Positions 13,688 to 63,177 of a DNA stretch of 64,000 nt are shown here, piece by piece. This DNA comes from Terriglobia bacterium. GTDB lineage: Bacteria; Acidobacteriota; Terriglobia; 20CM-2-55-15. A program made the translations under genes and the position numbers. The stretch lies in assembly GCA_965198225.1 (NCBI GenBank), contig CBDAOY010000008.1:1024001-1088000 (forward strand). Direction: 5' to 3'. The notes beneath the pieces were generated by a model, which was given only the letters and a program-made list of their open reading frames with translations, searched no databases and was not told the origin of the DNA. Each line of letters begins with the position of its first letter. Position 1 is the first letter of the stretch.

Positions 13688-14305
13688 ATGATTCCCCGAC
13701 TGATGCTCTGCGGCCTTTGTGTCCTCGGCGCCGTCGTAGCCGCTTCGGCCCAGGTTCCGGCGGGCGATCCTTTCGAAGCCAAGAAACACCCGAATCCGAT
13801 CGTCACTTTCGTCGAATCAAAGCACTTCAAACCGACGGACTACAACACCGCTCGCGATCGGGCGGACATCGAACTGCTCGGCTTGTCCCGGGACGAAGGT
13901 CATCGTGAAAGCGTCGAGATCACGCGGAGCGACGCGCGGAAGCTCAAGATCCTTGGCCGAAAGACCGAAGTTTTGTTCTTCCCCGTCGTGAAGCAGAACT
14001 TCCGTTTGGCCGACGAAGGTCTGCTCGTCCTGTACTCCTTCAAGGATCCGCGGCCCGACATCCCGTCCGAGTACCGCGTGTCGATTCTCAACGAACACGC
14101 TTTTCGCGAACACAAGAAACCCAAGGATGGACGCTTCGGGCTCAGCACTCCACCGGAGCGGTTGGGGATCCGGGGTTCGGCGGCCCTGCTGTTTGACAAC
14201 GACGGAGAACTGACGTTGTTCTGGCAGGATCGCGGCGTGTCGCATGCCGCCTCGGGAAGCATGAGCCGGGAGATGCTGTTCTGGTTGGTCGAAGATCTAT
14301 TGTAG
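13688..14305 (+). CDS. Hypothetical secreted protein
   Basis: Signal peptide ending ASA-Q; perfect extended -10 box upstream. Confidence 0.65.
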   Translation: MIPRLMLCGLCVLGAVVAASAQVPAGDPFEAKKHPNPIVTFVESKHFKPTDYNTARDRADIELLGLSRDEGHRESVEITRSDARKLKILGRKTEVLFFPVVKQNFRLADEGLLVLYSFKDPRPDIPSEYRVSILNEHAFREHKKPKDGRFGLSTPPERLGIRGSAALLFDNDGELTLFWQDRGVSHAASGSMSREMLFWLVEDLL

Positions 14306-14360
14306 CGAGATCAAACACGTCTCACGATTTGTGGGACTCCTCGGCAGTGGGCGTAAGTTT

Positions 14361-15266
14361 GTGAAAGTTGCTGTCACCGGCGCGACGGGGTTCATCGGAA
14401 AACGCTTGGTCGAAGAGTTCGAGCGCACAGGTGTCGAATTCGTCGTCATCACCCGAGATTCATCTCGTGCCCGCGGGGCGTTCCCACAAGCGGCCGGTAT
14501 TCTGGAATGGGATCCGCCCGGGCGAGGCTTGAATCCATCCGATCTTGCCGGCCTGGACGGGGTCGTGAACCTGGCCGGGGCAACGGTCGCCCAACGCTGG
14601 ACGGCCAGGGCAAAGAACGCGATCCGCAACAGTCGCGTGGATTCGACACGGCTGGTAGTCGACGCGATCAGCGGTTCGGACTCGCCGCCACCCGTGTTGG
14701 TCAGCACATCCGCGATCGGTTTCTACGGTCCACGCGATTCCACCCGCCTGAACGAAGACAGCCCTCCCGGATCGGACTTTCTCGCTGAAGTCTGCCAACA
14801 GTGGGAGGCCGAATCGCAGAAGGCGACCGCGGCCGGGGTCCGGGTGGTGAACCCCAGGATGGGCATCGTCCTCGGCTCCGGCGGTGGGGCGATGGCAAAC
14901 ATGCTGACACCGTTCAAACTCGGCGTCGGAGGTCCCATCGGAAACGGGAGGCAATGGATGTCCTGGGTCCACATCGACGATGTTGCCGGCATGCTGATCG
15001 AGGGGCTGAAGAGCGCCGGCCTGTCAGGACCCGTTAATGTGACTGCCCCGGAGCCTGCGACAAACCGTGACTTCTCCAAAGCTCTGGGACGCGCCCTGCA
15101 CCGACCGGCCTTCCTGCCGACTCCGGTGTTTGCTTTGAGATTGGGGTTCGGAGAGTTCGCCGACATCCTGGCCACCGGGCAACGGGTCCTACCCGAGAAG
15201 GCTTTGGCCGCGGGCTACCGGTTCCGATTTCCAGAACTTCGGGAGGCCCTTTCCGAAGTCGTCTGA
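14361..15266 (+). CDS. TIGR01777-family NAD-dependent epimerase/oxidoreductase
   Basis: VTGATGFIG, VNLAG, GRQWMSWVHIDD and GQRVLP motifs. Confidence 0.9.
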   Translation: MKVAVTGATGFIGKRLVEEFERTGVEFVVITRDSSRARGAFPQAAGILEWDPPGRGLNPSDLAGLDGVVNLAGATVAQRWTARAKNAIRNSRVDSTRLVVDAISGSDSPPPVLVSTSAIGFYGPRDSTRLNEDSPPGSDFLAEVCQQWEAESQKATAAGVRVVNPRMGIVLGSGGGAMANMLTPFKLGVGGPIGNGRQWMSWVHIDDVAGMLIEGLKSAGLSGPVNVTAPEPATNRDFSKALGRALHRPAFLPTPVFALRLGFGEFADILATGQRVLPEKALAAGYRFRFPELREALSEVV

Positions 15267-15293
15267 GATGCAACGTCGCAGCTCGCCCTCTAG

Positions 15294-15562
15294 CAGCCCG
15301 TGGCAGAAGTCTGATGGTTCGCGCGCACGGGTCTTGCGAGGCGGAGACGAGGCGCGAGGAGGAATCGATGCTGTTTCATCAATGACGACGAGTAACAAAG
15401 TATCCGACCGCAACCCCCGTGCGCCCGGAGGGTTACGGCGGCGTCACACCATCTGCGTTGTTCCCGCTCCTAAACGATGTACCAGCATCGCCCTCGTCGC
15501 GGCGCCTAGCATCTGGCGCAACGCCGCCGTAACGCGAGCCATCAGACTTCTGCCACGGGCTG
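15294..15562. mobile_element. 269-bp MITE-like element with 29-bp TIRs and structured cargo
   Basis: TIR CAGCCCGTGGCAGAAGTCTGATGGYTCGC matches 28/29. Flanks are CTAG and CTTG. No credible CDS inside. Confidence 0.8.
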
Positions 15563-15569
15563 CTTGACC

Positions 15570-17864
15570 GTGAAACTACTCAACCGGTACATCTTCCGCG
15601 AAACGCTCGTCCCTATGCTCATCGCGCTTCTTGCGCTGACCTTCGTTATGGTAGCGCAGCAGATGGGCGGGCTCGTGGAACTGATCGTCCGGCGTTCGGC
15701 CACTGCCGCTGAAGTGTGGGCCATCATCGCCGCGATCCTGCCGGGCGCGCTGATGGTCACGATACCGACGGCCCTGCTCGTCGGTGTGCTGACCGGATTC
15801 GGACGGATGTCGTCCGACAGCGAAAGCGTGGCCTTCCGTGCCGGTGGCGTACCGACGCGCGCTATACTCCGACCCGTCCTCACGCTCGGTTTTCTGGCCT
15901 GGGCCGTGAATCTGACGCTATCGGTCTGGATCGCTCCTGCTGCCGCTGCCCGGCTCGAGGAGCTCAAGTTTTCGATCGGCGTGAAGCAGTTGTCGTTCGA
16001 GCTCCAGCCGCGCGTCTTCAACGAAGATCTGGGCAACGGGGACCTCGTCCTTTACGTTCGGGACGTGTCGGCGGAAGGGAACGAATGGCGCGGAATCCTC
16101 CTGGCAGACCTTGGAACGCCGGACAAGCCGAGTGTCACGATGGCGCAGTACGGACGGTTCAGCGGTGAGGCAGCTGACGGAACTTACGAGGTGACGTTGT
16201 TCAACGGCAGCACCCACATCGCGCTCAGCCCTGATCGCTACGACTTCTCGCAGTGGAACGTGAACACTCTCCCGGTCCCGCTGCCGGCAGACCCGACACC
16301 GGCGGTGGAGCTTTCGCCTACTCAAGTCTCGACCGAGGGCCTGTGGCGATCGATAGGCGCCGGCAGCGCGACCTTCGCCGACGAGGTCGAGTTTCACCGC
16401 CGTATTGCTCTTCCGTTTGCATGCCTGGCGTTCGCGCTGATCGGCCTGCCGCTGGGGCTGTCGACCCATCGCGGCGGCAGGTCGATGGGGCTGGTCGTCA
16501 GCATCCTGCTCATGCTCGTCTACTACATGATCTTCGTTGGGGGCACCCGAATCGCCGCGAACGCGCAACTGTCTCCTTTCGTCGGAACCTGGGGAGCCAA
16601 CCTCGGGTTCGCGGCCCTGGGAGTATTCCTCCTGATCCGCTCGGAAAAGGAGCACGACAACCGGCTGATCGGTCTGCTGAACGAAGTCGGTGAGGGTTTC
16701 CGGCGGAAGCTCAGCTCCATTCCAAAGTTCGGTTCCTGGATCGGCCGATGGGCGTACTCGTTCACCCACCACCCCACCTGGTTCAGGACACTCGACGTCT
16801 ACGTGTTGAGGGGGTTCTCTTTTTTCTTCTTCCTCGTTCTCGTCGTCTTCGTGGCGTTGTTCATGATCGTCACGCTCTTCGAGCTCCTCCCGGACATCGT
16901 GAAGAACAACGCCAGCTCGAGCGTCGTAGCCGGTTATTTCTTCTTTCTCCTGCCCCAGATCCTGCACTGGGTAATGCCCCTCGCCGTCCTGCTTGCGGTG
17001 CTCGTGAACCTCGGCGCACTGACCAAAACGAACGAGACCCTCGCGGCAAAGGCCGGAGCGATAAGCCTGTACAGGATGTCGGTGCCGCTTCTGATCGTCG
17101 CCCTCCTGCTTTCCGTGGGGGTCTATTTCATGCAGGACTACCTGCTTCCGTATTCCAACCAGCGGCAGGACGAATTCAGGAACCGAATCAAGGGCCGCGC
17201 CGCACAGACCTACCGCGACCCGCTGCGGAAGTGGATGGCGGGCTCGGAAAACCAGATCTACCACTACAACTATTTCGATCCCGAGCGAAACGCCTTCGCG
17301 GGCATCTCGGTTTTCGACTTCGACCCGGAAAACTTCGGCCTACGACGCTGGACGTTCGCCTCGCGCGGCAGCTGGAATGGGCAGGGTTGGATACTCGAGA
17401 ATGGATGGTCCCGATCACTCCAGAGCGATGGAGGAATCGCTTATGACGCGTTCGAACGCAGGGACTCCGCACAGATGGAAGATGGCCCGGACTACTTCAA
17501 GAAAGAAGTCCGGACGGCCTCGCAGATGAGCTATCCCGAACTGCGCCTCTACATCGATGACCTCTCACAGAGCGGTTTCGATACGAGCAGCCTGACCGTC
17601 GATCTGTACCGCAAGCTCTCGTTCCCCTTCGTGTCGCTCATCATGGCCATCATCGCCGTACCGTTCTCGTTCACGACCGGCCGGAGGGGGGCCTTTTACG
17701 GGATCGGAATCTCCATCGTCATCGGGATCGGCTACTGGGCAGCGTTCGAGTTCTTCGACACGCTCGGGGGAATCAACCGGCTGTCGCCGCTGATCGCGGC
17801 CTGGTTCCCGAACCTGATATTCGGGCTCAGTGGAATCTGGTTGCTGTTGAAAGTAAGGACGTAG
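15570..17864 (+). CDS. lptFG: Fused LptF-LptG LPS export permease
   Basis: Two tandem YjgP/Q modules: LNRYIFRE..RMSSDSESVAFRAGG and LDVYVLR..NETLAAKAGAIS. Confidence 0.9.
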   Translation: MKLLNRYIFRETLVPMLIALLALTFVMVAQQMGGLVELIVRRSATAAEVWAIIAAILPGALMVTIPTALLVGVLTGFGRMSSDSESVAFRAGGVPTRAILRPVLTLGFLAWAVNLTLSVWIAPAAAARLEELKFSIGVKQLSFELQPRVFNEDLGNGDLVLYVRDVSAEGNEWRGILLADLGTPDKPSVTMAQYGRFSGEAADGTYEVTLFNGSTHIALSPDRYDFSQWNVNTLPVPLPADPTPAVELSPTQVSTEGLWRSIGAGSATFADEVEFHRRIALPFACLAFALIGLPLGLSTHRGGRSMGLVVSILLMLVYYMIFVGGTRIAANAQLSPFVGTWGANLGFAALGVFLLIRSEKEHDNRLIGLLNEVGEGFRRKLSSIPKFGSWIGRWAYSFTHHPTWFRTLDVYVLRGFSFFFFLVLVVFVALFMIVTLFELLPDIVKNNASSSVVAGYFFFLLPQILHWVMPLAVLLAVLVNLGALTKTNETLAAKAGAISLYRMSVPLLIVALLLSVGVYFMQDYLLPYSNQRQDEFRNRIKGRAAQTYRDPLRKWMAGSENQIYHYNYFDPERNAFAGISVFDFDPENFGLRRWTFASRGSWNGQGWILENGWSRSLQSDGGIAYDAFERRDSAQMEDGPDYFKKEVRTASQMSYPELRLYIDDLSQSGFDTSSLTVDLYRKLSFPFVSLIMAIIAVPFSFTTGRRGAFYGIGISIVIGIGYWAAFEFFDTLGGINRLSPLIAAWFPNLIFGLSGIWLLLKVRT

Positions 17865-17875
17865 GAGGATGGCGG

Positions 17876-17945
17876 GTGTAGGTGCGCTCTATGAGCGCAC
17901 ACGCCTCGAACCGCAACAATGTGCGGTCATAGACCGCACCTACAC
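17876..17945. repeat. REP doublet (GTAG-type)
   Basis: GTGTAGGTGCGCTCTATGAGCGCAC paired with inverted GTGCGGTCATAGACCGCACCTACAC, between convergent genes. Confidence 0.8.
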
Positions 17946-17955
17946 CTACAGGTCA

Positions 17956-19107
17956 CTAGACGCCTGCCGCCTGGCCGCGCAGGGCGGCGGCCTTGTCGGT
18001 CGCTTCCCAGGAAAACTCAGGCTCTTCCCTGCCGAAATGACCATAGCTGGCTGTCTTCTGGTAAATCGGACGCCTCAAGTTCAGGGACTCGATGATCCCG
18101 CGAGGCGTCAACTGGAAGTTCTCGCGTACGAGCTCTGAAATCTTCTCATCAGCCATCTCTCCCGTACCGAAGGAATCCACCAACACGGAAACCGGGTCCA
18201 CAACACCGATGGCATAGGCAAGTTGAATCTCGACACGGCTGGCGAGCCCGGCCGCAACGACGTTCTTGGCGACGTGGCGCGCCATGTAGCAGGCCGATCG
18301 GTCTACCTTAGTCGGATCCTTGCCGGAAAACGCGCCGCCTCCGTGGCGACCCATGCCGCCGTAAGTGTCGACGATAATCTTCCGCCCGGTCAGTCCGCAA
18401 TCGCCCTGCGGACCACCGCGAACGAACCTTCCGGTCGGATTGACGTGGTACTTGGTAGCGGAATCGAGGAGCTCCTCAGGAAGCACCGCCTTGATCACGT
18501 GGGTTATGACCTCCTCACGGATCTGCATCGCGGTGGCTTCGGGATCGTGTTGCGTAGAGACAACGACCGTATCGATCCTTACTGGTTTACTCCCTTCATA
18601 TTCAACCGATACCTGAGATTTTCCATCGGGTCTCAGAAACGGGAGCAAACCGGACTTCCGCAGCTGGGCCAGCCGCGCCGTCAATTTGTGGGCGAGCAGG
18701 ATCGGTGTCGGCATCAACTCGCGTGTTTCGTCGGTGGCGTAGCCGAACATCATGCCCTGGTCGCCGGCGCCTCCGGTGTCGACACCCATCGCGATGTCCG
18801 GAGACTGCCGGTCGATCGCCGACATGACCGCACAGGTGTTGCAATCGAAGCCGTAGTCGCCCGAAACGTACCCCACATCCTGCACCGTCCTCCGGACCAC
18901 GCTCTCGAAGTCGATGTAGCATTTTGTCGTGATCTCCCCTGCCACGAGAGCCAGCCCGGTCGTCACCAGCGTCTCACAGGCGACGCGACCCATCGGGTCT
19001 TCTTCCATGACGCAGTCCAGAACTGCATCCGAGATCCGGTCGGCCAGCTTGTCGGGATGCCCCTCCGTTACCGACTCTGAGGTAAACAACTTTCGAGTGT
19101 CACTCAC
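17956..19107 (-). CDS. metK: S-adenosylmethionine synthetase
   Basis: [19 protein letters not shown] and GGGAFSGKD motifs. Confidence 0.98.
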
Positions 19108-19188
19108 TTAGCCTTTCTCCTTCCAGAATCCCGCACCTGGCGCCCACAGGCGATCGGTCGGGAGCATACTTTTCGTAGCGATAATTGC

Positions 19189-20061
19189 TTACGCCCTGGG
19201 ATGGTGTGCCTTGTAAATCTGCTTCAACCGCTCCCGGATCACGTGCGTGTATATCTGCGTCGTCGATATGTCGGAATGGCCGAGCATCATCTGGACCGAT
19301 CTCAAGTCAGCGCCACGCTCCAGCAGGTGCGTTGCGAACGAATGCCGCAACATGTGCGGCGATATTTTCTTGCCGATCTTCGCCCGCTCACCGTAAGTCT
19401 TCAGGATCAACCAGAAGCCGCCCCGGGTCAGTTTCCCGCCCCTGTAGTTCAGGAACAGATACTGGCTAGTCTGTTTCTTCCGGCCCTTGTCGAGGTATTC
19501 CCGGACCGCCCGGACGGCCGAAGCGCCCAGCGGTACGATACGTTCCTTACTCCCTTTCCCCATGCATCGTACGAATCCGCTGTCCAGGTCGAGAGCGTCG
19601 ACTCTCAGCCCAACAAGCTCCGAAACACGGAGACCGGTCGCATACATCACCTCGATCATCGCACGGTCGCGAAGGCCCGCCCGCTCCTCTGCCTTCGGGG
19701 CGGCCAGCAGCTGATCCACCTCTTCAAACGTCAAGAAGTGGGGCAGTGGAACCCAGGACTTCGGGATATCCACCACAGCCGTCGGATTATCCTGGCTTTC
19801 GCCTTCCAGTATCAGGAACCGGTACAAACCCCGGATGGCGGTCAACGCCCGTGCGGCCGAGCGTGCCTTCAAACCGCGACTATAAAGGAACGAAACAAAA
19901 GCGGATACATCTGCAGGCTTTGCTGAGGCCAGATCGGCTTCGTCCAGATGCTCGCAGTAGAGCAACAGATCCCGCCCGTACGAATCGAGGGTGTTCGCTG
20001 ATAGACCCTTCTCAATCCGAAGATACAGGAGAAACCGGTCTACCCATTCCTCGTTCGTCAT
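19189..20061 (-). CDS. xerD: Tyrosine recombinase XerD
   Basis: YATGLRVSEL, HMLRHSFATHLL and LGHSDISTTQIYTH motifs. Confidence 0.93.
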   Translation of the reverse strand: MTNEEWVDRFLLYLRIEKGLSANTLDSYGRDLLLYCEHLDEADLASAKPADVSAFVSFLYSRGLKARSAARALTAIRGLYRFLILEGESQDNPTAVVDIPKSWVPLPHFLTFEEVDQLLAAPKAEERAGLRDRAMIEVMYATGLRVSELVGLRVDALDLDSGFVRCMGKGSKERIVPLGASAVRAVREYLDKGRKKQTSQYLFLNYRGGKLTRGGFWLILKTYGERAKIGKKISPHMLRHSFATHLLERGADLRSVQMMLGHSDISTTQIYTHVIRERLKQIYKAHHPRA

Positions 20062-21638
20062 GAGATGGGCGTCGATCCGTCGCCCGTGCGCCTGAGGAAA
20101 ACGTCGCGAACTTCACCAAGCTCGCGGCACCTCAGCAAAAAGGCCGCCAGAAAGTATACAACGGCTGAGGTCAGGATCGTTGCTGCGAGTGCGAAGATAC
20201 GCTGTCCCAGCGCCTGGTCGTAGTAGAAACCGGGGCTGTTGATCAGGGTCGACGCAAGGAATCCGAGCGGCACCGAGGCGGCGGCAAATCGAACCAGCGA
20301 TGAGTTGATGGAGGCAAGACCGATCGTCCCGTGCCGCTGGATGAATATCACGATCAACGCAATCGCGTTGAAGAAAGCCGCGAGCGACATCGCCAGCGCC
20401 GGTCCGCCGACCTCGAGGGGACGGAAGAACGCAAAGTTGAACACGACGTTCAGCAGCATCGCCCAGCAGGCGATCCGCACCGGAGTGCGCGTATCCTCGA
20501 GAGAGTAGAACGCCGGAACGATCACCTTCACCATGGAAAGCGCCGAAAGACCGAAGGCAAAGAACAGGAGAGGCCAGCTCGTCAGCGCGGTAGACGCAGC
20601 ATCGAACTCGCCGTGTTCGAAGAGCACTTCGATTATCGGGACACGCAGCACGACAAGCCCGACCGTGGACGGCACGGTTATGAACAGAATGATCCGTGAC
20701 GCAAAGTTCAGCGTTCCCTTCATCTCTTCCATTCGAAGCTCTCCGGCCTGGCGAGAGAGTAGAGGTAACACGACGGTCGCGATCGCGACCGCATAGCCGC
20801 CGAGGACCAACTCCATGACCCGGTCGGAGAGGTACAGCGCCATCTGCGGACCATCGCCGAGGAAAGAAGCAAAAGTCCGGCCCACGACGAAGTTGAGTTG
20901 GGCGACGCCGACCCCCAGGACCACGGGAACCATCAGCCGTCCAGCCCTGCGGACGGCTGCGTCAGCGAGGTTCAATTGAGGTCGAAACCTCCAGCCAGTC
21001 CCTATGAGCTGCGGCACCTGGACTGCGACTTGCGCGACGCCACCAATGACCACTCCAACCGCCAACGCCGTCTCGGGGCTCGGGAACAGTCCGGTCAGGA
21101 AGGAAAGCGTGATCACGCTGAGGTTCAAGAGCACTGGAGCAAATGCTGGAGCCGCAAACTTGTGGAAGCTGTTCAAGATCCCCATCGCCATCGCCGACAG
21201 GCTGATGAAGAAGATATAGGGGAACATGATCCGGTTCAGGAGTGCGGTCAACTCCAGCTTGCCCGGGGTTTCGGTGAAACCGTACGCAATGGCGCGGACG
21301 AGCAGAGGTGAAAAGAGGATTCCCAGAACGGTCACTGCAGTCATCGCCAGCGAGACCAGTGTGATCAGGGTGTTGGCAAACCGCCACGCGTCTTCGCGGT
21401 CTTCAAGGGCAACGTACTTTGAGAAAATGGGAATGAATGCGGCGCTCACGGCGCCTTCACCCACGAGACGGCGGAGGAGATTGGGGATCATGTAGGCAAC
21501 GGTGTAGGCGTCGCCCGCAGCGCCGGCGCCCAGAAGCGACGCGATTCGAAGGTCGCGGATGTAACCGAAAATCCGGCTGAGGAGGGTGATCGCGGTGACG
21601 AGGGAGGCTGACCGGAGCAGCGTACGGTGTTCGCTCAT
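20058..21638 (-). CDS. murJ: Lipid II flippase MurJ
   Basis: SRIFGYIRD, PNLLRRLVGEGAVSAAFIP and FYSLEDTRTP motifs. Confidence 0.95.
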   Translation of the reverse strand: MSEHRTLLRSASLVTAITLLSRIFGYIRDLRIASLLGAGAAGDAYTVAYMIPNLLRRLVGEGAVSAAFIPIFSKYVALEDREDAWRFANTLITLVSLAMTAVTVLGILFSPLLVRAIAYGFTETPGKLELTALLNRIMFPYIFFISLSAMAMGILNSFHKFAAPAFAPVLLNLSVITLSFLTGLFPSPETALAVGVVIGGVAQVAVQVPQLIGTGWRFRPQLNLADAAVRRAGRLMVPVVLGVGVAQLNFVVGRTFASFLGDGPQMALYLSDRVMELVLGGYAVAIATVVLPLLSRQAGELRMEEMKGTLNFASRIILFITVPSTVGLVVLRVPIIEVLFEHGEFDAASTALTSWPLLFFAFGLSALSMVKVIVPAFYSLEDTRTPVRIACWAMLLNVVFNFAFFRPLEVGGPALAMSLAAFFNAIALIVIFIQRHGTIGLASINSSLVRFAAASVPLGFLASTLINSPGFYYDQALGQRIFALAATILTSAVVYFLAAFLLRCRELGEVRDVFLRRTGDGSTPIS

Positions 21639-21716
21639 TCCTTCCAGGGAGCTATACTAACATAGGCCTCTAAAACAAAGGCCTTCATGGATTTAAGCGA
21701 AGAGGAGAGCGGACCA

Positions 21717-22730
21717 TTGAAGCTTCGTTTAATTGCCCAAAAGCTCGGGTGCACACTGCACGGCGACGCTGAGAGGGAAATCACGGGCGTTTCGGGCATC
21801 GAGGAAGCTGGCCCGGAACAAATCACGTTTGTCTCGAATCGCCGTTACGCGGCGAGCGCGAGGACGACGAAGGCCGGCGCGGTCCTCGTTACCGAAGACT
21901 TCCCCGAGATACCGGCGCCCACGCTCCGCACACCCAATCCATACCTCGCCTTCGCACGTTCGATCGAGTTGTTCTACGAGGCACCGGTACCTCCCCGGGT
22001 GGTTGATTCGACAGCCCGGGTTTCGGCTTTGGCGCGAATCGGTACCGGCGCGTCGATAGGCGCTTACGTTGTCATCGACGACGACGTCACGATCGGAGAG
22101 AACGCGACCATCGGGGCGTTCACCCACATAGGGCAAGGCGCCCAGATCGGCGACAACTTTCGGACGTATTCCCATGTATCCGTGCGCGAGTACTGCTTGA
22201 TCGGGAACAACGTCATCCTGCAGGATGGCGCCCGCATCGGCTCCGACGGCTACGGTTATGCCAAGAAGGATGACGACAGCTACCATAAGATCGTCCAGTC
22301 CGGAATCGTGGTCCTCGAAGACGACGTCGAGGTGGGCGCCAACACCACGATCGATCGGGCGACGATCGGCGAAACGCGGATTCGGAGCGGCGCCAAGATC
22401 GACAACCTCGTACAAATCGGCCACTCCTCCGTCGTGGGTGAAAACACTCTCCTCTGCGCGCAAGTTGGTCTCGGAGGCAGTTCCAGAATCGGACGTAACG
22501 TCGTCCTCACCGGACAGGTCGGAGTCGCAGGACACCTCGAGATCGGAGACGGTGTGATCGCCACCGCCCAGACTGGAATCCCCAACTCGGTGGAAGCCGG
22601 CAAGATGATTTCCGGCTATCCCGCCATCGACAACCGGCTCTGGCTCAAATGCTCGGCAGTGTTCAAGCGACTCCCCGAGCTGCTGAAACGGGTCGATCGG
22701 TTGGAGAAGGGGAGGGGAAGTAGTCAGTAA
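21717..22730 (+). CDS. lpxD: UDP-3-O-acylglucosamine N-acyltransferase
   Basis: Hexapeptide repeats, GSDGYGY, EVGANTTIDRA and KIDNLVQIGH. TTG start after AAGGAG. Confidence 0.95.
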   Translation: MKLRLIAQKLGCTLHGDAEREITGVSGIEEAGPEQITFVSNRRYAASARTTKAGAVLVTEDFPEIPAPTLRTPNPYLAFARSIELFYEAPVPPRVVDSTARVSALARIGTGASIGAYVVIDDDVTIGENATIGAFTHIGQGAQIGDNFRTYSHVSVREYCLIGNNVILQDGARIGSDGYGYAKKDDDSYHKIVQSGIVVLEDDVEVGANTTIDRATIGETRIRSGAKIDNLVQIGHSSVVGENTLLCAQVGLGGSSRIGRNVVLTGQVGVAGHLEIGDGVIATAQTGIPNSVEAGKMISGYPAIDNRLWLKCSAVFKRLPELLKRVDRLEKGRGSSQ

Positions 22731-22924
22731 TCAGTAGTCGGTTGTCAGTTGGCGGCTTCGCGGCGGGACAATGCCGCTAGACGTTACGGGTCTGACTGAC
22801 CCTGTTGTGAAGACTCGACCCCTGATCCTCTACTCTCCTACCTCCCGCCGGTTTCCGCGATGGGACATGCTTCGGCGGGCTTTGCCCCGAGGATGCCGAG
22901 CCGTCTGCGCAAGGGGAGCTAGAC

Positions 22925-23221
22925 TCAGACAGTCTCCACTTGCAATCCGCCCATGACCGTACAGGCCAGATTGAAAAGCGCACCGGCGATCAAACCTGTC
23001 AGAAAACCCATGAAGCTGTAGAAAATGGGCAACACGATGACCGAACCCACGCCGAAGAAAAGGGCGAGTAAGGCACCGGTAGCCCCTTCGGCTCCTCCGG
23101 TCAACGCGAACCCGAACACCGACAGCAGCGCAAAGACCGAGCCCCCGATGAGCCCGAAGGCTGCGTAGATAACAGTGAGAATCTTCCCCAACGACAGAAC
23201 GTCGATTTTGGTAATAGTCAA
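22925..23221 (-). CDS. Small membrane protein (DUF3566-like)
   Basis: ITKIDVLSLGK, hydrophobic helices, FNL..GGLQVE C-terminus. GGAGG RBS then TTG start. Confidence 0.65.
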   Translation of the reverse strand: MTITKIDVLSLGKILTVIYAAFGLIGGSVFALLSVFGFALTGGAEGATGALLALFFGVGSVIVLPIFYSFMGFLTGLIAGALFNLACTVMGGLQVETV

Positions 23222-23310
23222 GACAGCACCTCCTTGAAAGATCAGCCTCCTGACCTCGTCGAGACTGCGCCGAGGCACAGACGCTTGTTCACACGTGCGG
23301 AGAGAAGACC

Positions 23311-23376
23311 AACCACGGAGGCACGGAGGCGCCGAGCACTTATGTCTTCTCGCCGAGCCTCCGAGCCTCCGTGGTT
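23311..23376. repeat. Intergenic palindromic repeat (ACCACGG family; relatives at 41373-41458 and 46065-46158)
   Basis: AACCACGGAGGCACGGAGGC ... GCCTCCGAGCCTCCGTGGTT inverted repeat. Confidence 0.7.
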
Positions 23377-23500
23377 GCTTCTTTCTTCTAACCTTATCGG
23401 TATGGATCGCACGTTATCGTTTCCTGGAAGACGTTGTAAAGGAAGACCATGCATGCAGAATCGGACGGGAGAGTGGCGCCGGCGGACGCGTCGACATAGA

Positions 23501-24736
23501 ATGACGACACCGATGACCCGGCGAATCATCCTCCCCATGCTGTTGGTCCTGACCGGCATTTCGGTGCAAGCCGACGACTGGCCCCAGTTCCGTGGTCCGA
23601 CCGGACAGGGGCACTCCTCCGAAGGCCAGTTGCCGTTGGAGTGGGATGAGGAACGGAACGTGGTCTGGAGAATCCCTGTTTCGGGACAGGGCTGGTCTTC
23701 TCCGGTCGTTTCCGAAGGGCGCATCTGGTTGACGACCGCGATCGTCGATCAAGACGCAGCTTCGCTTCGAGCAATCGCTTTCGATTTCGAGACGGGACGC
23801 GAAGTCGTCAACTCCGAGATCTTCCAAATGGACGATGCGCGGCTGCTGAATCTGAAGAACACCCACGCCTCCCCCACGCCCATCGTGGAAGGCGATCAGG
23901 TCTATGTCCACTTCGGCGCCACCGGCACGGCGGCACTCACGACCTCCGGTGAAGTCATCTGGAAGACGACCTTCCCCTACATTTCTCAGCACGGCAACGG
24001 GGGTTCACCGGTTCTGTATGAGGACCTGCTGATTATCAACTGCGACGGCTTCGACGAAGCCTTCGTCGTGGCGGTGGACAAGAGCACCGGCGAGGTCCGC
24101 TGGAAAACGGCCCGGCCCAGACCGTTCAGCCAGGCGTACTCGACTCCCCTCCTGATCCGGGTCGACGAACGGGACCAACTCGTCAGCGTGGGCGCGTTTC
24201 GCGCAATCGCCTACGAACCGATATCCGGAGATGAAATCTGGCGCGTCAACTATCCGGACGGCTTCTCCAACGTCCCGAGTCCGGTCTACGGGCACGGACT
24301 CGTCTACATAGCCACCGGGTTCCAGCAGCCGTCGCTGATGGCCGTGCGGGTGAATGGCAAGGGTGACGTGACCCAAACGCACGTCGAGTGGACCTTGCGG
24401 CGGTCTGTGTCTCTGACTCCGTCGCCACTCCTGGTCGGAGACGAACTCTATGTGGTGAGCGACATCGGCGTCGTCAGCTGCCTCGACAGCAAAACTGGAA
24501 AGCCGCACTGGCAGCAGCGCGTGCTGGGCAACTTCTCCGCATCCCCGGTCTATGCGGACGGGCGTATTCACATCCTGAGCGAAGGGGGGACAACGACCGT
24601 CATCTCCCCCGGGAAGGAGTTTCGCGCCCTCGCGGAAAACGTCATCGATGGCTGGACGCTTGCCTCGATGGCCGTTTCGGACGGATCGATCTTCATCCGC
24701 AGCCTCGACCACCTGTACCGTATCGCCGGGCAGTAG
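23501..24736 (+). CDS. PQQ-like beta-propeller repeat protein, secreted
   Basis: Signal peptide, DWPQFRGP start, repeated SSPVV/SPV..GEVRW blades. Confidence 0.9.
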   Translation: MTTPMTRRIILPMLLVLTGISVQADDWPQFRGPTGQGHSSEGQLPLEWDEERNVVWRIPVSGQGWSSPVVSEGRIWLTTAIVDQDAASLRAIAFDFETGREVVNSEIFQMDDARLLNLKNTHASPTPIVEGDQVYVHFGATGTAALTTSGEVIWKTTFPYISQHGNGGSPVLYEDLLIINCDGFDEAFVVAVDKSTGEVRWKTARPRPFSQAYSTPLLIRVDERDQLVSVGAFRAIAYEPISGDEIWRVNYPDGFSNVPSPVYGHGLVYIATGFQQPSLMAVRVNGKGDVTQTHVEWTLRRSVSLTPSPLLVGDELYVVSDIGVVSCLDSKTGKPHWQQRVLGNFSASPVYADGRIHILSEGGTTTVISPGKEFRALAENVIDGWTLASMAVSDGSIFIRSLDHLYRIAGQ

Positions 24737-24855
24737 CAGCCCAACCTTCCCCACATCCGTATGATTAGGCTTCACCAATCCCGTCCGAAGGTCGTACAAT
24801 TTGCTTCGGCTCCCGTAAGAACAGGGACAGAACGCTGTTTAAAGGCAGGTGACCC

Positions 24856-26343
24856 ATGAGACGTGCGAGCATCCTGGTCCGCTCCATCGGCATTCTGACC
24901 GGTGTCCTGATTGGCCTGAACGTGACCACCCTCCAGGCGCAGGAATGGCTCGGTGCCAGTTCCCGGCACTACCGGATTCTTGGGACGGCCGATGACGACG
25001 ACTTGGTAGAAGTCGGAGTGCGGCTTGAAGCTTTCTTCACCGCCGTCAACAGCACTCTCTTCAGGGGGCAACAGCTTCGGAGCCCGGCCCCGACGACAGT
25101 GATCGTTCTGGATGACGATGACGACGTCGAGGAACTCGGCCTGACCCCGGAAGCCGATGGCTACTTCCTCGCCGGCAGGAACGAAAACTTCATGATCCTC
25201 TCTCCTGAATCCCGCAGCCGTAGCCCCTTCGAGCCGATCATGCGCGGTTTCTTCCTAACGATTGCTGAGGAGAACCTGCCCGACATGCCGGTGTGGCTCC
25301 GTGAGGGCTTGGCCGAGTTCTACAGTACTATCGAGATGGATGACGAGCTGCTGGTGATCGGACGCCATGTCGAAGAGTACATCCGAGCGGTCCGGGACGA
25401 AGACGACCGTCTGCCGTACGCGGAAGTGTTCGAAGGAGCGCCCACGGCGAATCCTGCCGACGAGGAGCGGGACCAGATGTTCCAGGCTCAGTCATGGGCC
25501 CTGATCCACTTCTTGATGATGCGCAACAGGGGACCGGGTCTCGCAGAAACGGCAACCTTCGCCCAGTTGATCAACGCCGGGGGAGCTTTCGAGGAGTCTT
25601 TCCGCTCCGCGTTCGGCACCAGCTTCGAAGACCTTCAGGAAGAGTTTGACGATTACCTCGACGAAAGGAGTTTTCCGTTCCTGCGGATGACGATCAGCGG
25701 AATCGGCGAGGACTACATAACGATGGATGCGGATCCCTTCTCGCCGGCGCAGGGTGAGACTTATCTTGCGGATCTCATGCTCGAAGCTGGCCGAACCGCC
25801 GAAGCGGAACGTCGCCTGCAGGCTGCGATCGCCAGGGAGGGGGGGCTGTCGGCGCCTCACACGTCCCTAGGTGGACTGCGTCTCCAACAAGGGCGGCATG
25901 ACGAAGCGCTGGAGAGCCTCGAACGAGCGGTCGAAGGGTCAGGACCGACCCATCTCAGCCACTACTACTACGCACTGGCTTACAACAGGGTGAACCCCGA
26001 ACTGTCCGACGAAGGACGGGCACTTCTCCGGCAACACCTCGGTGAAGCCATCCGGCTGGGGCCAGAGTTTCCGGACGCGCACCACGAACTTGCCGTGACG
26101 TACGTCGACATGGGCGACGACCTGGATGAAGCGGCCCGGCTGCTCGACCGAGGATTGACGCTTTCGCCGGATCACCCCGCGTATCTGGTAACGCTCAGCC
26201 GTGTCTTGATCGCCCAGGGTTTTCCCGATGCAGCACGCAGCGTTCTTGAACGGGTGCTGGAATTGACCGACGACCAGGCCATTCGTGGACGTGCCGAATC
26301 GATACTGGAGTCGATCGCCGGCCAGGATGAAGGCCAGGCGTGA
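24856..26343 (+). CDS. Secreted TPR protein with degenerate peptidase-MA-like (DUF1570-like) domain
   Basis: PVWLREGLAEFY and FQAQSWALIHFL motifs, C-terminal TPR helices. Confidence 0.75.
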   Translation: MRRASILVRSIGILTGVLIGLNVTTLQAQEWLGASSRHYRILGTADDDDLVEVGVRLEAFFTAVNSTLFRGQQLRSPAPTTVIVLDDDDDVEELGLTPEADGYFLAGRNENFMILSPESRSRSPFEPIMRGFFLTIAEENLPDMPVWLREGLAEFYSTIEMDDELLVIGRHVEEYIRAVRDEDDRLPYAEVFEGAPTANPADEERDQMFQAQSWALIHFLMMRNRGPGLAETATFAQLINAGGAFEESFRSAFGTSFEDLQEEFDDYLDERSFPFLRMTISGIGEDYITMDADPFSPAQGETYLADLMLEAGRTAEAERRLQAAIAREGGLSAPHTSLGGLRLQQGRHDEALESLERAVEGSGPTHLSHYYYALAYNRVNPELSDEGRALLRQHLGEAIRLGPEFPDAHHELAVTYVDMGDDLDEAARLLDRGLTLSPDHPAYLVTLSRVLIAQGFPDAARSVLERVLELTDDQAIRGRAESILESIAGQDEGQA

Positions 26344-27779
26344 AAGGACCCTCGCTGGCGAGCGTTGCGTTTCTCGTCACGACGCTCGCCATCGACGTCG
26401 CCGCCCAGGACATCCCGTCGTCGCCTGAGCCCGGACGGACGGATGTGCTCTTCATAGCGATAGATGACCTCAATGACTGGGTAGGAGTTCTGGATGGACA
26501 TCCACAGGCCAGAACCCCGAACATCGATCGGCTCGCGGACCGGGGGATAGTCTTCACGAACGCCCACACGGTCTCGACTTCCTGCAATTCGTCACGCACC
26601 GCTCTGCTGACGGGGCTCCGACCGTCGAGCACCGGTGTCTACACCAACGGACGGGACTGGCGCAACGTCGAAAGACTTCGTAGCATACCGACCCTGCCTG
26701 GACACTTTCGCGAAGAGGGCTACCGGACGTTCGGCGCCGGCAAGATCTTCCACGCTCATACCTACTACCCGGAAGGATTCTTCGGGTTCAACGATCCCGA
26801 CGCGTGGGAGGCTTTTTATCCCTCTGTCCGTCGCCAGCTCCCCGACGAAGTCGGCCCGCCCACACGGCCTGCCAATCAGAATCCGGGCTATCTCGGCTTC
26901 GATTGGTCCGCTGTCGTCACCGACGACGCGGCGATGGGGGATGGGCAGGTCGTCTCCTGGGCGGAACGCCAACTGGCAGCTTCGAGCGGTGACCCGAGAT
27001 TTCTGGCCGTGGGTATATACCGCCCACACCTTCCCTGGTATGTGCCGCAGGCCTACCTGGACATGCATCCTCTCGAGCAGATCGAGCTGCCCACGACCGT
27101 GGAGAGCGACCTGGATGACGTGCCCGAGATAGCCTGGCCTGCCCCATTGAACTCACGGGAGACACATCGGTGGGTCGTTGAACAGGACATGTGGGAAGAG
27201 GCGGTCCAGGCTTACCTGGCCAGTATCAGTTTTGCGGACGCGATGGTTGGCCGTCTGGTCGCCGCTTTGGATCGGAGTGGGCGCGCCGAGGACACGATTG
27301 TCGTTCTCTGGTCCGATCACGGTTTCCATCTGGGCGAGAAGCAACGCTGGCGCAAGTGGACCCTGTGGGAGGAAGTAACCCACGTACCGCTGATTGTCGT
27401 GGCACCGGGCGTCACGACCCCCGGAAGCCGCACCGCCAAGCCGGTCTCTTTGCTGGACGTTTATCCCACACTGACGGAGTTGGCGGGCATCTCGATGCCG
27501 GAGCACCTGGAGGGAACCAGCCTCGTTCCGTTGATTGAGGATCCGGATGCAGAGTGGGATCATGCCGCCGTGACCACGAACGGCTACCGGAACCATTCTG
27601 TGCGGGACCTCCGTTACCGCTACATTCGTCACGCCGACGAATCGGAGGAACTCTACGACCTCGAAACCGATCCCAACGAATGGAAGAACCTGGCCGCAGA
27701 CCCCGCCTTTGGTGAGACAAAGAGCCGGCTCGCCGAATGGCTGCCCGACGTCGACGTCCTTATCCGACCCCAGCCATAG
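26340..27779 (+). CDS. Sulfatase (iduronate-2-sulfatase/choline sulfatase-like)
   Basis: FIAIDDLNDW, CNSSRTALLTG, GKIFH, RPHLPW and SDHGFHLGEK motifs. Confidence 0.92.
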   Translation: MKGPSLASVAFLVTTLAIDVAAQDIPSSPEPGRTDVLFIAIDDLNDWVGVLDGHPQARTPNIDRLADRGIVFTNAHTVSTSCNSSRTALLTGLRPSSTGVYTNGRDWRNVERLRSIPTLPGHFREEGYRTFGAGKIFHAHTYYPEGFFGFNDPDAWEAFYPSVRRQLPDEVGPPTRPANQNPGYLGFDWSAVVTDDAAMGDGQVVSWAERQLAASSGDPRFLAVGIYRPHLPWYVPQAYLDMHPLEQIELPTTVESDLDDVPEIAWPAPLNSRETHRWVVEQDMWEEAVQAYLASISFADAMVGRLVAALDRSGRAEDTIVVLWSDHGFHLGEKQRWRKWTLWEEVTHVPLIVVAPGVTTPGSRTAKPVSLLDVYPTLTELAGISMPEHLEGTSLVPLIEDPDAEWDHAAVTTNGYRNHSVRDLRYRYIRHADESEELYDLETDPNEWKNLAADPAFGETKSRLAEWLPDVDVLIRPQP

Positions 27780-28364
27780 CAGCCCTGGCCCGACGCCAAA
27801 CGGTATCGCTGTCCGTTAGATGTAGATCCGTTCAGAGTTTCTCAGGGAACGGTAGCGCTCGAAAACCTTCCGCTCGTCTTCGACTCCCAGTATCGACTTC
27901 AGGCTGCTCCCACGGAACGAGTGCGCCAGCAGCTGGAAAGCGTTGCGAAAGACGTAGAAATTGTGCACGGCGCTCGAGTATTCGTCGGATCATACACCTA
28001 ACCGCTTTCGAGACGGAACGGTGCCGTTCTTGGCTGTCCTCTAGGCGACTCGGGTGTCGAAGAAGGCTGACTGTTGACAGCACGCTTGATCCCCATTAGT
28101 GGCCTGTAACAGTGCTATCGGCACCATCGCCGATGGGTCTTGCGGGCGAGGTCGCGGAGGGAGACGGAAAGCGATGCTCTTTCATCGGTGACGGCTTCCG
28201 ACAAAGAGATCGCCCGCAACCCCCATCGGCCCGAAGGGTTCGGCGGAACGGCCCCGTCTTCGGTGTCGTAACGCCCTCGCAATGAAACAGCATTGGCTCG
28301 AGCGTCACTCCTAGAATCCGACGCCGTTCCGCCGAACGCTGGTACCGATAGCACTGTTACAGGT

Positions 28365-29987
28365 GGTTATGTTTCAGAGTTTCTGCAAAAAGGTCCTGAA
28401 ATAGGAAAGGGCCAGGGTATCTCCGAAAAGTTGGTAACGAATCAACTTTGAAACGAAGGAGATGAACCGATGGCCCGACCTCAGATTAAGCGAAAGGGAG
28501 TGGATTGGAAAGAACTGTTAGGAGAGGAAAAGGATTTGCTGAAAAGCGTCGTACAGGAGGTGGTTCAAGAGATTCTCGAGGCGGAGATGGACCAGGTCGT
28601 GGGCGCGGTCAAGAGTGAACGAACAGGGGGTCGCACCGGATATCGGAGTGGCTATTACGGACGGGACCTGGTCACACGGGTGGGCAAGCTGGAGTTGCGC
28701 GTGCCGCAGGACCGGGCCGGCCGGTTCAGTACGGAGGTGTTTGAACGCTACCAACGCAGCGAGAAAGCCTTGGTGGCCAGCTTGGCCGAGATGTACGTGC
28801 AGGGCGTGTCAACGCGCAAGGTGAAAGCCATCACCGAAGAACTATGCGGACATTCGTTTTCGGCCAGCACGATCAGCCGGATTAATCAGACTCTGGACAA
28901 GGAGCTGAAAAAGTTTGCAACGCGACGATTGGAGGAAGAATACCCGTACCTAATTTTGGATGCGCGCTACGAGAAGGTGCGCGAAGACGGGGTCATCCGG
29001 AGCCGGGCGGTGCTGGTCGCGATCGGAATCAACTGGGACGGCCGGCGCGGTGTGTTGGCGGTGGAGCTGGCGGGACGGGAAAGCACGACCAGTTGGCGGC
29101 AACTGCTGCTGAGTTTAAAACAACGCGGCCTGTGCGGGGTGGAGTTCGTGGTGACCGACGATCATCCGGGGTTGAAGAAAGCCATCGCGGAAGTCCTGAC
29201 CGAAGCGATCTGGCAGCGCTGCTACGTGCACTTTCTCCGAAACGCATTGGATTATCTGCCGCGCAAAGGCGATGACGATTGCCTCCAGGAACTGCGTTGG
29301 CTCTACGATCGGCGGAACCTCCAGGAAGCGCGGCAGGACCTCGCGGCGTGGTTGAGCAAGTGGGGGCAGAAATATCCCAAACTCTGCGACTGGGTCGAAG
29401 ACAACATCGACGAGACGCTGAGCTTCTACACGCTGCCGCTTCAGCATCACAAGCACATGAAATCCACCAATATGCTGGAACGGCTCAACGAAGAGATCAA
29501 GCGGCGAACGCGTGTGGTGCGGATATTCCCCAACGCGGCCAGCTGTCTGCGTTTGATTCGGGCACTGACCACCGAGATGCACGAGAACTGGATCGAAGCG
29601 ATCCGTTATTTGAACATGGATCTGTTGAAGGAACACAAGAAGGACTGGCACCGTCAGACGCCTGCCGCGTGAACGCGTCAAAACGGACCGACCCAAGGAT
29701 CGGCTCGGAAGCCGATCGTCGATTACAGCGCATCCTGGAGCGAGGAATCTCTGTGGAAAACTTTCAAAGGGCGAAAGAAAGAGAACCAAAAAAGAAAGAA
29801 AGGCAGAGGCCTGATGGAAATGACGCCTCAGAGGAAATCCGCAACAAGACGCGGATTCCCTCTGAGGCTTGGAAAAGCTTCGCCAAGAACGTTCAGCTTT
29901 CCCACATTCCCACAGGCCCGACGGCGATCAACACTCAAGAACTGACTTTTTCGGAAATACTTTTTGCAGAACTTGACGCACACAACT
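28365..29987 (+). mobile_element. IS256-family insertion sequence with 8-bp TSD TTACAGGT
   Basis: TSD at 28357-28364 and 29988-29995; imperfect IRs containing TTCTGCAAAAAG. Confidence 0.92.
28470..29672 (+). CDS. IS256 (Mutator) transposase
   Basis: RVPQDR, QGVSTRKV, WQRCYVHFLRN and STNMLERLNEEIKRR motifs. Confidence 0.97.
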   Translation: MARPQIKRKGVDWKELLGEEKDLLKSVVQEVVQEILEAEMDQVVGAVKSERTGGRTGYRSGYYGRDLVTRVGKLELRVPQDRAGRFSTEVFERYQRSEKALVASLAEMYVQGVSTRKVKAITEELCGHSFSASTISRINQTLDKELKKFATRRLEEEYPYLILDARYEKVREDGVIRSRAVLVAIGINWDGRRGVLAVELAGRESTTSWRQLLLSLKQRGLCGVEFVVTDDHPGLKKAIAEVLTEAIWQRCYVHFLRNALDYLPRKGDDDCLQELRWLYDRRNLQEARQDLAAWLSKWGQKYPKLCDWVEDNIDETLSFYTLPLQHHKHMKSTNMLERLNEEIKRRTRVVRIFPNAASCLRLIRALTTEMHENWIEAIRYLNMDLLKEHKKDWHRQTPAA

Positions 29988-30001
29988 TTACAGGTCACTA
30001 G

Positions 30002-63127: not shown

Positions 63128-63177
63128 GATTTCATGCGGGTGGGAGTGCGCCCTGGCCGCGGCTCCCGGACCCACTA

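Follow-up and report, generated by a model that had tools for sequence, protein, structure and literature searches.

The interior of a MITE is usually regarded as filler, with the TIRs as its sole functional part. A number of described elements resemble, in one respect or another, those that we have analysed here. RUP of Streptococcus pneumoniae, a MITE thought to be mobilised by IS630-Spn1 (PMC2229807), is likewise a short element without coding capacity that targets TA and lies between genes in many copies; its TIRs are similar to those of a resident IS630-family IS, and it gives a stable stem-loop. As that source describes it, however, it is 107 bp long, belongs to one species group and folds as a simple stem-loop, whereas the present elements are about 270 bp long, Y-shaped, built from two inverted modules, bounded by many TIR classes and found phylum-wide. 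The Correia (NEMIS) elements of Neisseria are MITEs flanked by TA as well; their TIRs measure about 24-26 bp, internal blocks distinguish subtypes, and their RNA contains stem-loops. In the same account, however, they are 107 or 155 bp long, contain an IHF site and give RNA that is cut by RNase III (PMC2229807), while the core here is a duplicated hairpin module. The nearest described shape is that of the CIR repeats of Caulobacter and Brucella, in which two long inverted repeats make up two arms and a linker; these are listed there without TIRs and are defined by a conserved GANTC methylation motif (PMC2229807), in contrast with the clear IS630-type TIRs and TA duplication seen here. For the piggyBac-related CMITEs of corals, family comparisons are reported to show an interior that is better conserved than the TIRs, from which the authors infer a role in transposition (PMC2872659), a pattern that our elements share in outline; CMITEs, however, are eukaryotic, of piggyBac type and about 100 bp long, with no covarying structure reported, and the elements described below are bacterial and of IS630 type.

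In this study, we have described two elements, A and B, in a window of 64,000 nucleotides (the whole stretch of DNA that was analysed). The interior of each consists of two inverted copies of one hairpin module of about 109 nt, which meet at a central CCCNNNGGG. A covariance model, R1, built from Domain 2 (D2) only, also matches the whole of Domain 1 (D1), on the opposite strand, which bears out a preliminary description of this DNA, in which D2 was said to resemble the reverse complement of D1. The features are the following:

15293-15563, forward strand: element A, a complete MITE, whose A-type family numbers 13 copies in the genome
15293-15322, forward strand: left TIR of A, which pairs with 15534-15563
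15323-15423, reverse strand: D1 of A, the module in inverted orientation (R1 match 15323-15432, minus strand, 36.7 bits, E 1.6e-4, model positions 1-109)
15424-15432, no strand assigned: central CCCNNNGGG junction of A, common to both modules and paired in 99% of cells
15433-15533, forward strand: D2 of A, the module in forward orientation (R1 match 15424-15533, plus strand, 56.4 bits)
15534-15563, forward strand: right TIR of A, which pairs with the left TIR
28099-28364, forward strand: element B, from the B-type MITE family (40 full copies, about 97-98% identity), with TA at 28097-28098
28099-28128, 28129-28229, 28230-28238, 28239-28337 and from 28338 on: left TIR, D1, junction, D2 and first part of the right TIR of B, from the sequence layout (R1 matches 28230-28337, plus strand, 79.1 bits, and 28129-28238, minus strand, 38.1 bits, E 8e-5)
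28365-29987, forward strand: IS of Mutator/IS256 type, 1623 bp, in the right TIR of B (transposase ORF 28470-29672, Pfam Transposase_mut, E 2.6e-147)
29996-29998, forward strand: last 3 nt of the right TIR of B, cut off by the IS insertion and followed by TA-G
63173-64000, forward strand: left part of an autonomous IS630-family IS of about 1132 bp, continuing past the window end (present in the genome as three identical copies, 352-aa DDE_3 transposase)

The coordinates first given for the two elements (A at 15294-15562, B at 28099-28364 plus 29996-29998) are confirmed from the sequence, every stem pair quoted with them is present, and the apical loops of D1 in A and D2 in B are indeed reverse complements. 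The 1623-bp IS that splits B is surrounded by an 8-bp target duplication (28357-28364 and 29988-29995). A is flanked by TA at 15291-15292, inside CTAG, and by TT at 15564-15565, and its site is empty in the three same-genus genomes compared (G001, G002 and G003); there the orthologous intergenic region lacks about 269 bp. As a record of observations, the preliminary description therefore stands in that the elements are real and their stems covary, but two of its statements need correction. The TIRs, of about 30 bp and described as unrelated, have diverged but are related: in both elements they sit in CTAG/TA, and their outer 22 nt are 46% identical between TIR classes, against 26% +/- 9% after shuffling; the length of exactly 269 bp assigned to both elements depends on the placement of the ends, and by the convention used for B (first G to last C between the TAs) A measures 271 bp.

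In the genome, 155 loci are related to these elements, and the 107 that are full-length form six families with lengths of 268-278 bp, both CTAGs counted. GAATC is present in only some families, unlike the conserved GANTC of CIR. Nearly all full copies (102) are intergenic, five are partly so and none is genic, with a chance expectation of 22%, and 83 of the 150 module groups are inverted pairs. Variants have multiplied as well, namely one-module types (8 and 6 copies) and types in which the D1 interior is unrelated (15 and 6 copies). A conserved reading frame is absent, the module lengths varying by single bases between families. By our own reading of the sequence, the open frame of B is interrupted in A. 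Outside this genome, 29 of the other 149 class genomes and 24 of 150 phylum genomes contain the module, one of the latter (G209) being flagged as unpublished; the layout TIR-D1-D2-TIR was found in every case inspected, with a partner module at E <= 0.01 at 15 of 20 distant-genome loci, and the D2-type forward orientation is the form seen across the phylum.

As a single strand, the element is predicted to fold as a Y, formed by the TIR stem and two hairpins. Folded as DNA, A scores z = -9.99 against its shuffles, and an intact copy of B folded as RNA scores z = -10.99; in neither case did any of 200 shuffles do as well. Thirteen elements from 12 distant genomes, aligned with plain MAFFT, yield the same Y in RNAalifold, with 78 pairs, 52 of them showing compensatory changes. 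In the model-based alignments, which are biased towards the modelled structure and contain sequences related by kinship, 92.5% of cells are paired in the first set, against 72.1% after shuffling, and 95.1% against 67.0% in the more distant, phylum-wide set (0 of 500 shuffles as high in each), and both partners have changed in 24 of 26 modelled pairs (19.6 +/- 0.8 shuffled) and in 25 of 26 (16.7 +/- 1.5), respectively. When the partners are shifted by 1-3 columns as a control, just 27-49% of cells pair. Covariation well beyond chance, in two sequence sets and with RNAalifold, upholds the compensatory stem change noted earlier and, through those 24 and 25 pairs, the claim that the pairing is selected. 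The pairing is almost purely Watson-Crick, with G.U in 45 of 3333 cells of the first set and 8 of 976 of the second. On the modelled strand, A.C mismatches exceed G.U (144 against 45; 56 against 27 when dereplicated; 23 against 8 in the second set), an asymmetry of about 2-3 to 1 by which wobble-compatible mismatches are enriched on the strand read inward from each terminus. This excess suggests a bias to one strand, which a symmetric cruciform leaves unexplained.

IS630 prefers CTAG as a target, and CTAG is scarce genome-wide (0.53 per kb, 3.6 expected). In the B family it marks 27 of 40 and 31 of 40 ends, and in family F3 14 of 15 and 12 of 15; over the 107 full copies, TA is present at both ends in 65 and CTAG in 48, counts in which the six rows of family F7 are unreliable, their left boundary being wrongly placed. 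CTAG/TA flanks recur around the elements of distant genomes, and TA targeting is stated for the IS630/Tc1-mariner type (PMC2170065). The CTAG-flanked TIR tip of the 1132-bp IS at the window end is the same as that of B, and this IS is therefore a candidate mobiliser of the B-type copies, which, judging from the shared tip, it likely mobilises. A-type ends lie on none of the four DDE_3 genes of the genome, in which a TIR match to a resident IS was found for B but not for A; in relatives, IS TIRs resemble, by eye, other MITE TIR classes (L156, L158, L161 and L004). The same core is accompanied by TIRs matching several IS630 lineages, in keeping with the earlier suggestion of different transposases, and the IS630 transposases concerned are about 44% identical in protein. 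The module itself is absent from all 28 IS630 loci taken from relatives and from the IS copies of the genome itself, relaxed searches included, and thus the transposases do not need it on their own elements. TIR classes co-diverge with the core, TIR class being nearly congruent with the D2 tree (14 changes; minimum 10, shuffled mean 42.6).

Comparison between TIR classes gives an identity of 71% for D2 and 59% for D1, with 50% as the shuffle baseline; once baselines are allowed for, the conservation of D1 does not exceed that of the TIR. Unpaired columns overall are not better conserved than stems (0.69 against 0.75), and the two large internal loops are about 69-73% identical across families. 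Within families, private substitutions fall on 124 of 13234 paired site-copies and 77 of 6751 unpaired ones (p = 0.20, a comparison whose 201 events give it limited power), and 7 of 218 at paired sites yield a Watson-Crick pair. Given that stems are not significantly poorer in private mutations and that the copies show no orientation bias relative to neighbouring genes, selection seems to work on lineages that proliferate rather than on resident copies.

All this indicates that A and B are very probably members of one ancient, non-autonomous MITE superfamily of IS630/Tc1-mariner type in Acidobacteriota, and our best explanation as a whole, in which the core of this superfamily is kept by lineage-level selection, is reasonably probable. 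An element comprises, in order, CTAG/TA, a TIR of about 30 bp, the inverted module, the CCCNNNGGG junction, the forward module, a TIR and TA/CTAG; in the model that we propose, IS630-family transposases would cut and paste it in trans at TA, and the TIRs have diverged into classes fitting different resident IS630 lineages, with the core retained. Selection among proliferating lineages might keep the core for the help that it gives in cis to mobilisation or persistence; the core would act as a folded single-stranded nucleic acid, read inward from each terminus, with DNA likelier than RNA, and would not be a host-serving RNA gene. That the hairpin core aids mobilisation in cis is a tentative proposal, for which the balance is not quite even. 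Tc1/mariner cleavage, as presented in PMC2170065, uses no hairpin intermediate, so that no single-stranded step is known, which counts against a role in cis, and so do the absence of the core from the IS630s themselves, the multiplication of the one-module and unrelated-D1 variants, the excess of A.C mismatches on one strand and the conservation of D1 and of unpaired columns, which does not exceed that of the TIR and of the stems, respectively. In a further, rather doubtful form of the proposal, the module of about 109 nt would be an ancient, phylum-wide "mobilisation module", single-stranded and cis-acting, and re-tuning of the TIRs would let one lineage parasitise many IS630 transposases.

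Alternatively, the module might work as RNA, either as a cis structure in read-through transcripts (stability, processing, insulation) or as a trans small RNA that binds targets via the conserved C/U-rich internal loops. Stems that covary while the two large internal loops stay conserved would suit such a role, as would the wobble-compatible mismatches of the inward-read strand. A lies 6 nt upstream of the GTG start (15570) of a fused lptF/lptG gene and must belong to the lptFG mRNA unless it has its own promoter; neither a sigma-70-like promoter nor an intrinsic terminator was found within A. A 101-nt RNA-library contig spans 15348-15449 with two differences and one gap, but it gives neither strand nor ends, probably derives from another copy and could be DNA carry-over. 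Other bacterial MITEs form RNA folds and alter the transcripts of their surroundings, according to PMC2229807. The orientation of the present copies relative to neighbouring genes is unbiased (37/33/24/13), G.U makes up about 1% of cells, far below usual RNA stems, and the stems of resident copies are not depleted of private mutations. A permissive Rfam scan of 14000-31500 gave four weak matches, all below the gathering score and none in A or B; the module is without a match to any Rfam family, as the preliminary description had considered possible. A function as RNA is, on the whole, improbable.

A functionless core is also unlikely. It would be a leftover nested palindrome in which hairpin-templated correction (template switching in quasi-palindromes) maintains the complementarity of the arms, and recent horizontal spread would account for its apparent conservation. 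The element is a palindrome at several scales, and the near-pure Watson-Crick pairing, the lack of constraint in resident copies and the presence, in a genome of another genus (G020), of copies 98% identical to B would all follow. However, layout and loop motifs persist over many families of the phylum despite differing TIRs, the conserved internal loops are not palindromic, the co-divergence of TIR classes and core shows no recent-sweep pattern, and neither removal nor matching of private stem mutations reaches a visible rate, as the 7 in 218 indicate.

IS110-type recombinases employ guide (bridge) RNAs with two domains and internal loops. The reading originally put forward, in which unrelated transposon shells took up the core as an independent cargo or guide-like module, shares that outline (a stem, then a large internal loop, then a capping hairpin in both domains) and would explain the many TIR types around the same core, but it is most improbable, since every shell is of IS630 type with a CTAG/TA target, the near-congruence of TIR class and D2 tree indicates one transposon type, the loops are not complementary to ends or targets (longest loop-TIR shared word 5.45 nt on average, 5.46 for shuffled TIRs) and the otherwise unrelated flanks share CTAG only, no recombinase gene is adjacent or linked to the intergenic, scattered copies, hundreds of which are dispersed in a TA-duplicating DDE transposon context, and the genome is without a Y1/HUH transposase. 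From the earlier interpretation, the selected pairing, the lack of an Rfam match and the several transposase lineages are retained; the unrelated shells and the guide role are not. REP/BIME or IS200/IS605-type hairpin elements were considered too and rejected: the genome, which is 97% complete, has no PF01797 match, and TIRs and TA flanks are present.

The pattern found here is, phylum-wide, the reverse of that commonly assumed for MITEs: a covarying two-hairpin core is kept and the TIRs drift after different transposases, with a constraint that is visible between lineages and not in resident copies. With more than 100 elements per genome, the annotation of repeats and non-coding RNAs in Acidobacteriota should mask them, as they will otherwise be mistaken for RNA genes. 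If the reading of the core as a mobilisation module is true, it would be the first case described in a bacterial MITE of an internal transposition determinant that depends on structure, and a single-stranded step or a cofactor would follow for IS630-type mobilisation. If the core does aid mobilisation, one 352-aa transposase and a 269-bp substrate would provide a tractable system in which to ask what, beyond TIRs, makes non-autonomous elements succeed, and whether bacterial IS630/Tc1-mariner transposition may include a structure-dependent step.

The classification of elements A and B as MITEs of one superfamily is solid. Both are IS630/Tc1-mariner-type elements of about 269 bp, each consisting of a CTAG/TA-flanked TIR, a left domain (D1), a right domain (D2) and a second TIR, and re-reading of the sequence found them as the preliminary description had reported, every quoted stem included. 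The following features of the window are concerned, the two elements being placed by sequence:

15294-15562, element A
28099-28364 plus 29996-29998, element B, its right end interrupted by an IS
28365-29987, IS of Mutator/IS256 type, 1623 bp, within the right TIR of B, having made an 8-bp duplication

The transposase of the 1623-bp IS has 400 aa (Pfam E 2.6e-147), and a DDE_Tnp_1 transposase is encoded shortly downstream, at 30153-31901, so that IS insertions cluster in the 28-32 kb stretch. All three genomes of the same genus lack about 269 bp at the site of A, and A is therefore an insertion in the present genome. Its right end is 6 nt upstream of a conserved GTG start, and it thus forms the immediate 5' leader of the gene, a fusion of lptF and lptG in a single 766-aa ORF with two LptF_LptG stretches (15564-17864). 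A motif scan found no promoter or terminator motif within A.

In the 6.41-Mb genome that carries the window, 155 loci match A or B by blastn. Family sizes among them are 40 (B type), 18, 15, 15, 13 (A type), 8, 6 and 6, with some smaller groups besides. The A family is the older, with identities of 86-95% versus 97-98% within the B family. The majority consensus of the families carries CTAG at both termini, the right end of the A type being less clear; of the 107 full-length copies, 65 are flanked by TA on either side and 48 by CTAG, six rows of one family (F7) being unreliable in this count owing to a misplaced left boundary. CTAG is otherwise seven-fold under-represented in this genome (0.53 per kb versus 3.6 expected from base composition), and MITE ends account for much of it. 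Under a crude ORF/GC3 gene call, full-length copies are intergenic in 102 of 107 cases, against 22% expected, with no bias in orientation relative to the neighbouring genes.

The core of these elements is a duplicated hairpin module of about 109 nt. A covariance model of D2 (R1), built from 15 sequences with a hand-written structure, gave 151 matches over 100 sources. Among these, at full model length and on the opposite strand, are the D1 domains of both A and B as well as those of many further copies, so that the element reads as TIR, inverted module, CCCNNNGGG, module, TIR. An HMM search of the same genome found 237 modules in 150 groups, with inverted pairs in 83 of them; derivatives that keep a single module, or whose D1 interior is unrelated within the same closing stem, have multiplied too. 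In relatives, the 3' internal loop of D2 is enlarged in some subfamilies by additional blocks of about 25-50 nt (loci L034, L035, L063, L081, L093, L109, L128, L129 and L135), which indicates that this loop tolerates insertions; a 9-nt loop motif seen in relatives is absent from the window. A coding role is contradicted both by a reverse-strand open frame of B that, on reading, is shut after 14 codons in A and by module lengths that differ by single bases.

Single strands of A and B fold into a Y shape, in which the TIRs form a stem of some 30 bp and two hairpins branch from it (z-scores of -9.99 for A folded as DNA and -10.99 for an intact copy of B folded as RNA). The covariation of the stems claimed in the preliminary description was recovered in two alignment sets and in one plain MAFFT alignment. 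In a model-fitted alignment of 132 distinct rows, which leans towards the model and holds related sequences, 92.5% of the cells pair versus 72.1% after shuffling, both sides change in 24 of 26 pairs versus 19.6 +/- 0.8, and the covariation score is 0.481 versus 0.148; none of 500 shuffles equalled any of the three values, and in the slid controls only 27-49% of the cells form pairs. A distant set of 20 loci from 14 genomes of the phylum, with the same leaning and relatedness, gives 95.1% versus 67.0% and 25 of 26 pairs versus 16.7 +/- 1.5. RNAalifold returns the same Y shape for the plain MAFFT alignment, which holds 13 whole elements, with 78 pairs, 52 of them with compensatory changes. Pairing in the module stems is almost exclusively Watson-Crick, and the modelled strand shows a skew among transition-type mismatches, with 144 A.C versus 45 G.U (56 versus 27 after dereplication) and 23 versus 8 in the distant set. 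The strand read from centre to terminus has 11 A.C versus 1 G.U in the distant D2 rows, and the overall ratio is about 2-3 to 1 (alignments A3 and A5). The A.C excess on the modelled strand means that it is the strand running inward from each terminus that has the wobble-compatible pairs. This skew argues for one particular single strand, either RNA or DNA.

The two shells had been described as unrelated, a view that the comparison of TIR classes does not bear out: the outer 22 nt of the TIRs are 46% identical between classes versus 26% in shuffles. Between the same classes D2 is 71% and D1 59% identical, over a baseline of 50%; the classes come from an ungapped clustering of the TIRs, as gapped 32-mer identity has a baseline of 0.52 and chains all of them into one class. 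On the D2 tree, TIR class switches 14 times, compared with a minimum of 10 and a mean of 42.6 after shuffling. Taken with the identities, this indicates that ends and core mostly co-diverge, D2 being the best kept. The suggestion of a guide-like module fares no better, since words common to loops and TIRs are no more numerous than with shuffled TIRs. Unpaired columns, with an overall conservation of 0.69 versus 0.75 for stems, are not better kept.

A D2 pattern scan listed at least 76 stretches, 72 of the 76 in records titled Terriglobia, Acidobacteria, Solibacteraceae or Ca. Versatilivorator MAGs; the remaining four showed no extended likeness to the module on inspection. Within the class, 29 of 149 other genomes have matches to R1; within the phylum, 24 of 150 do, the unpublished G209 among these 24. 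Distant genomes have the same CTAG/TA-flanked layout with many TIR types, and it is the A-type D2 of the window that resembles their wide form. Copies with 97-98% identity to the B family occur in G020, a genome of another genus (e.g., L006:1501-1766), a closeness of sequence that suggests a recent horizontal transfer of the MITE, its IS, or both. No match was found for B in phage and plasmid collections, or for the D2 pattern in viral contigs.

As for the source of mobility, four DDE_3 (IS630-family) genes are present in the genome, and three of them lie in identical 1132-bp ISs, one copy of which is cut by the end of the window. The CTAG-flanked TIR tip of these ISs matches the TIR of B. The fourth IS, whose protein is 43.8% identical to their transposase, has a different TIR, resembling another MITE class found in relatives; A-type ends are absent from the ISs of all four genes. 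On contig C9 of this genome, a CTAG-flanked 17-bp mini-palindrome made of two TIR tips only stands immediately left of an IS630 copy and may represent an excision footprint or a minimal element. IS630 is plentiful in the relatives (up to 82 matches per genome), and several of its TIRs there resemble, by eye, further MITE TIR classes. The complete, single-contig genome G006 holds at least 18 modules and no DDE_3 match, and its modules look like orphaned copies outliving their mobiliser. No Y1 transposase was found in the genome of the window. A derivation of the core from IS ends was rejected: R1 run on 32 IS630 loci matched only the MITE adjoining the IS of L001, relaxed nhmmer and blastn-short searches of 31 such loci returned chance-level words and one 13-nt TIR tip (L156), and the module is absent from 28 IS630 loci of relatives and from the genome's own IS copies.

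The core, put forward as possibly undescribed, indeed has no match in Rfam. The nearest described kinds are RUP, the Correia/NEMIS elements and the two-armed CIR repeats (PMC2229807, which links RUP to IS630-Spn1); in coral CMITEs, interiors are reportedly more conserved than TIRs (PMC2872659). In the main texts of the literature searched, the present acidobacterial MITE family is not described. Contigs from RNA libraries X13 and X15-X17, all of low depth and uninformative where a stretch is uncovered, include perfect matches over the gene neighbouring A and one 101-nt contig over 15348-15449 in A, with 2 differences and 1 gap. Within families, private substitutions are not depleted at paired sites (0.0094 versus 0.0114 per site-copy in the unpaired interior, p = 0.20), and resident copies thus appear to decay irrespective of structure. 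That constraint is seen between lineages and not in resident copies is consistent with selection for the capacity to proliferate, and for this reason we favour a role in which the core would act in cis, in the mobilisation or the persistence of the element.
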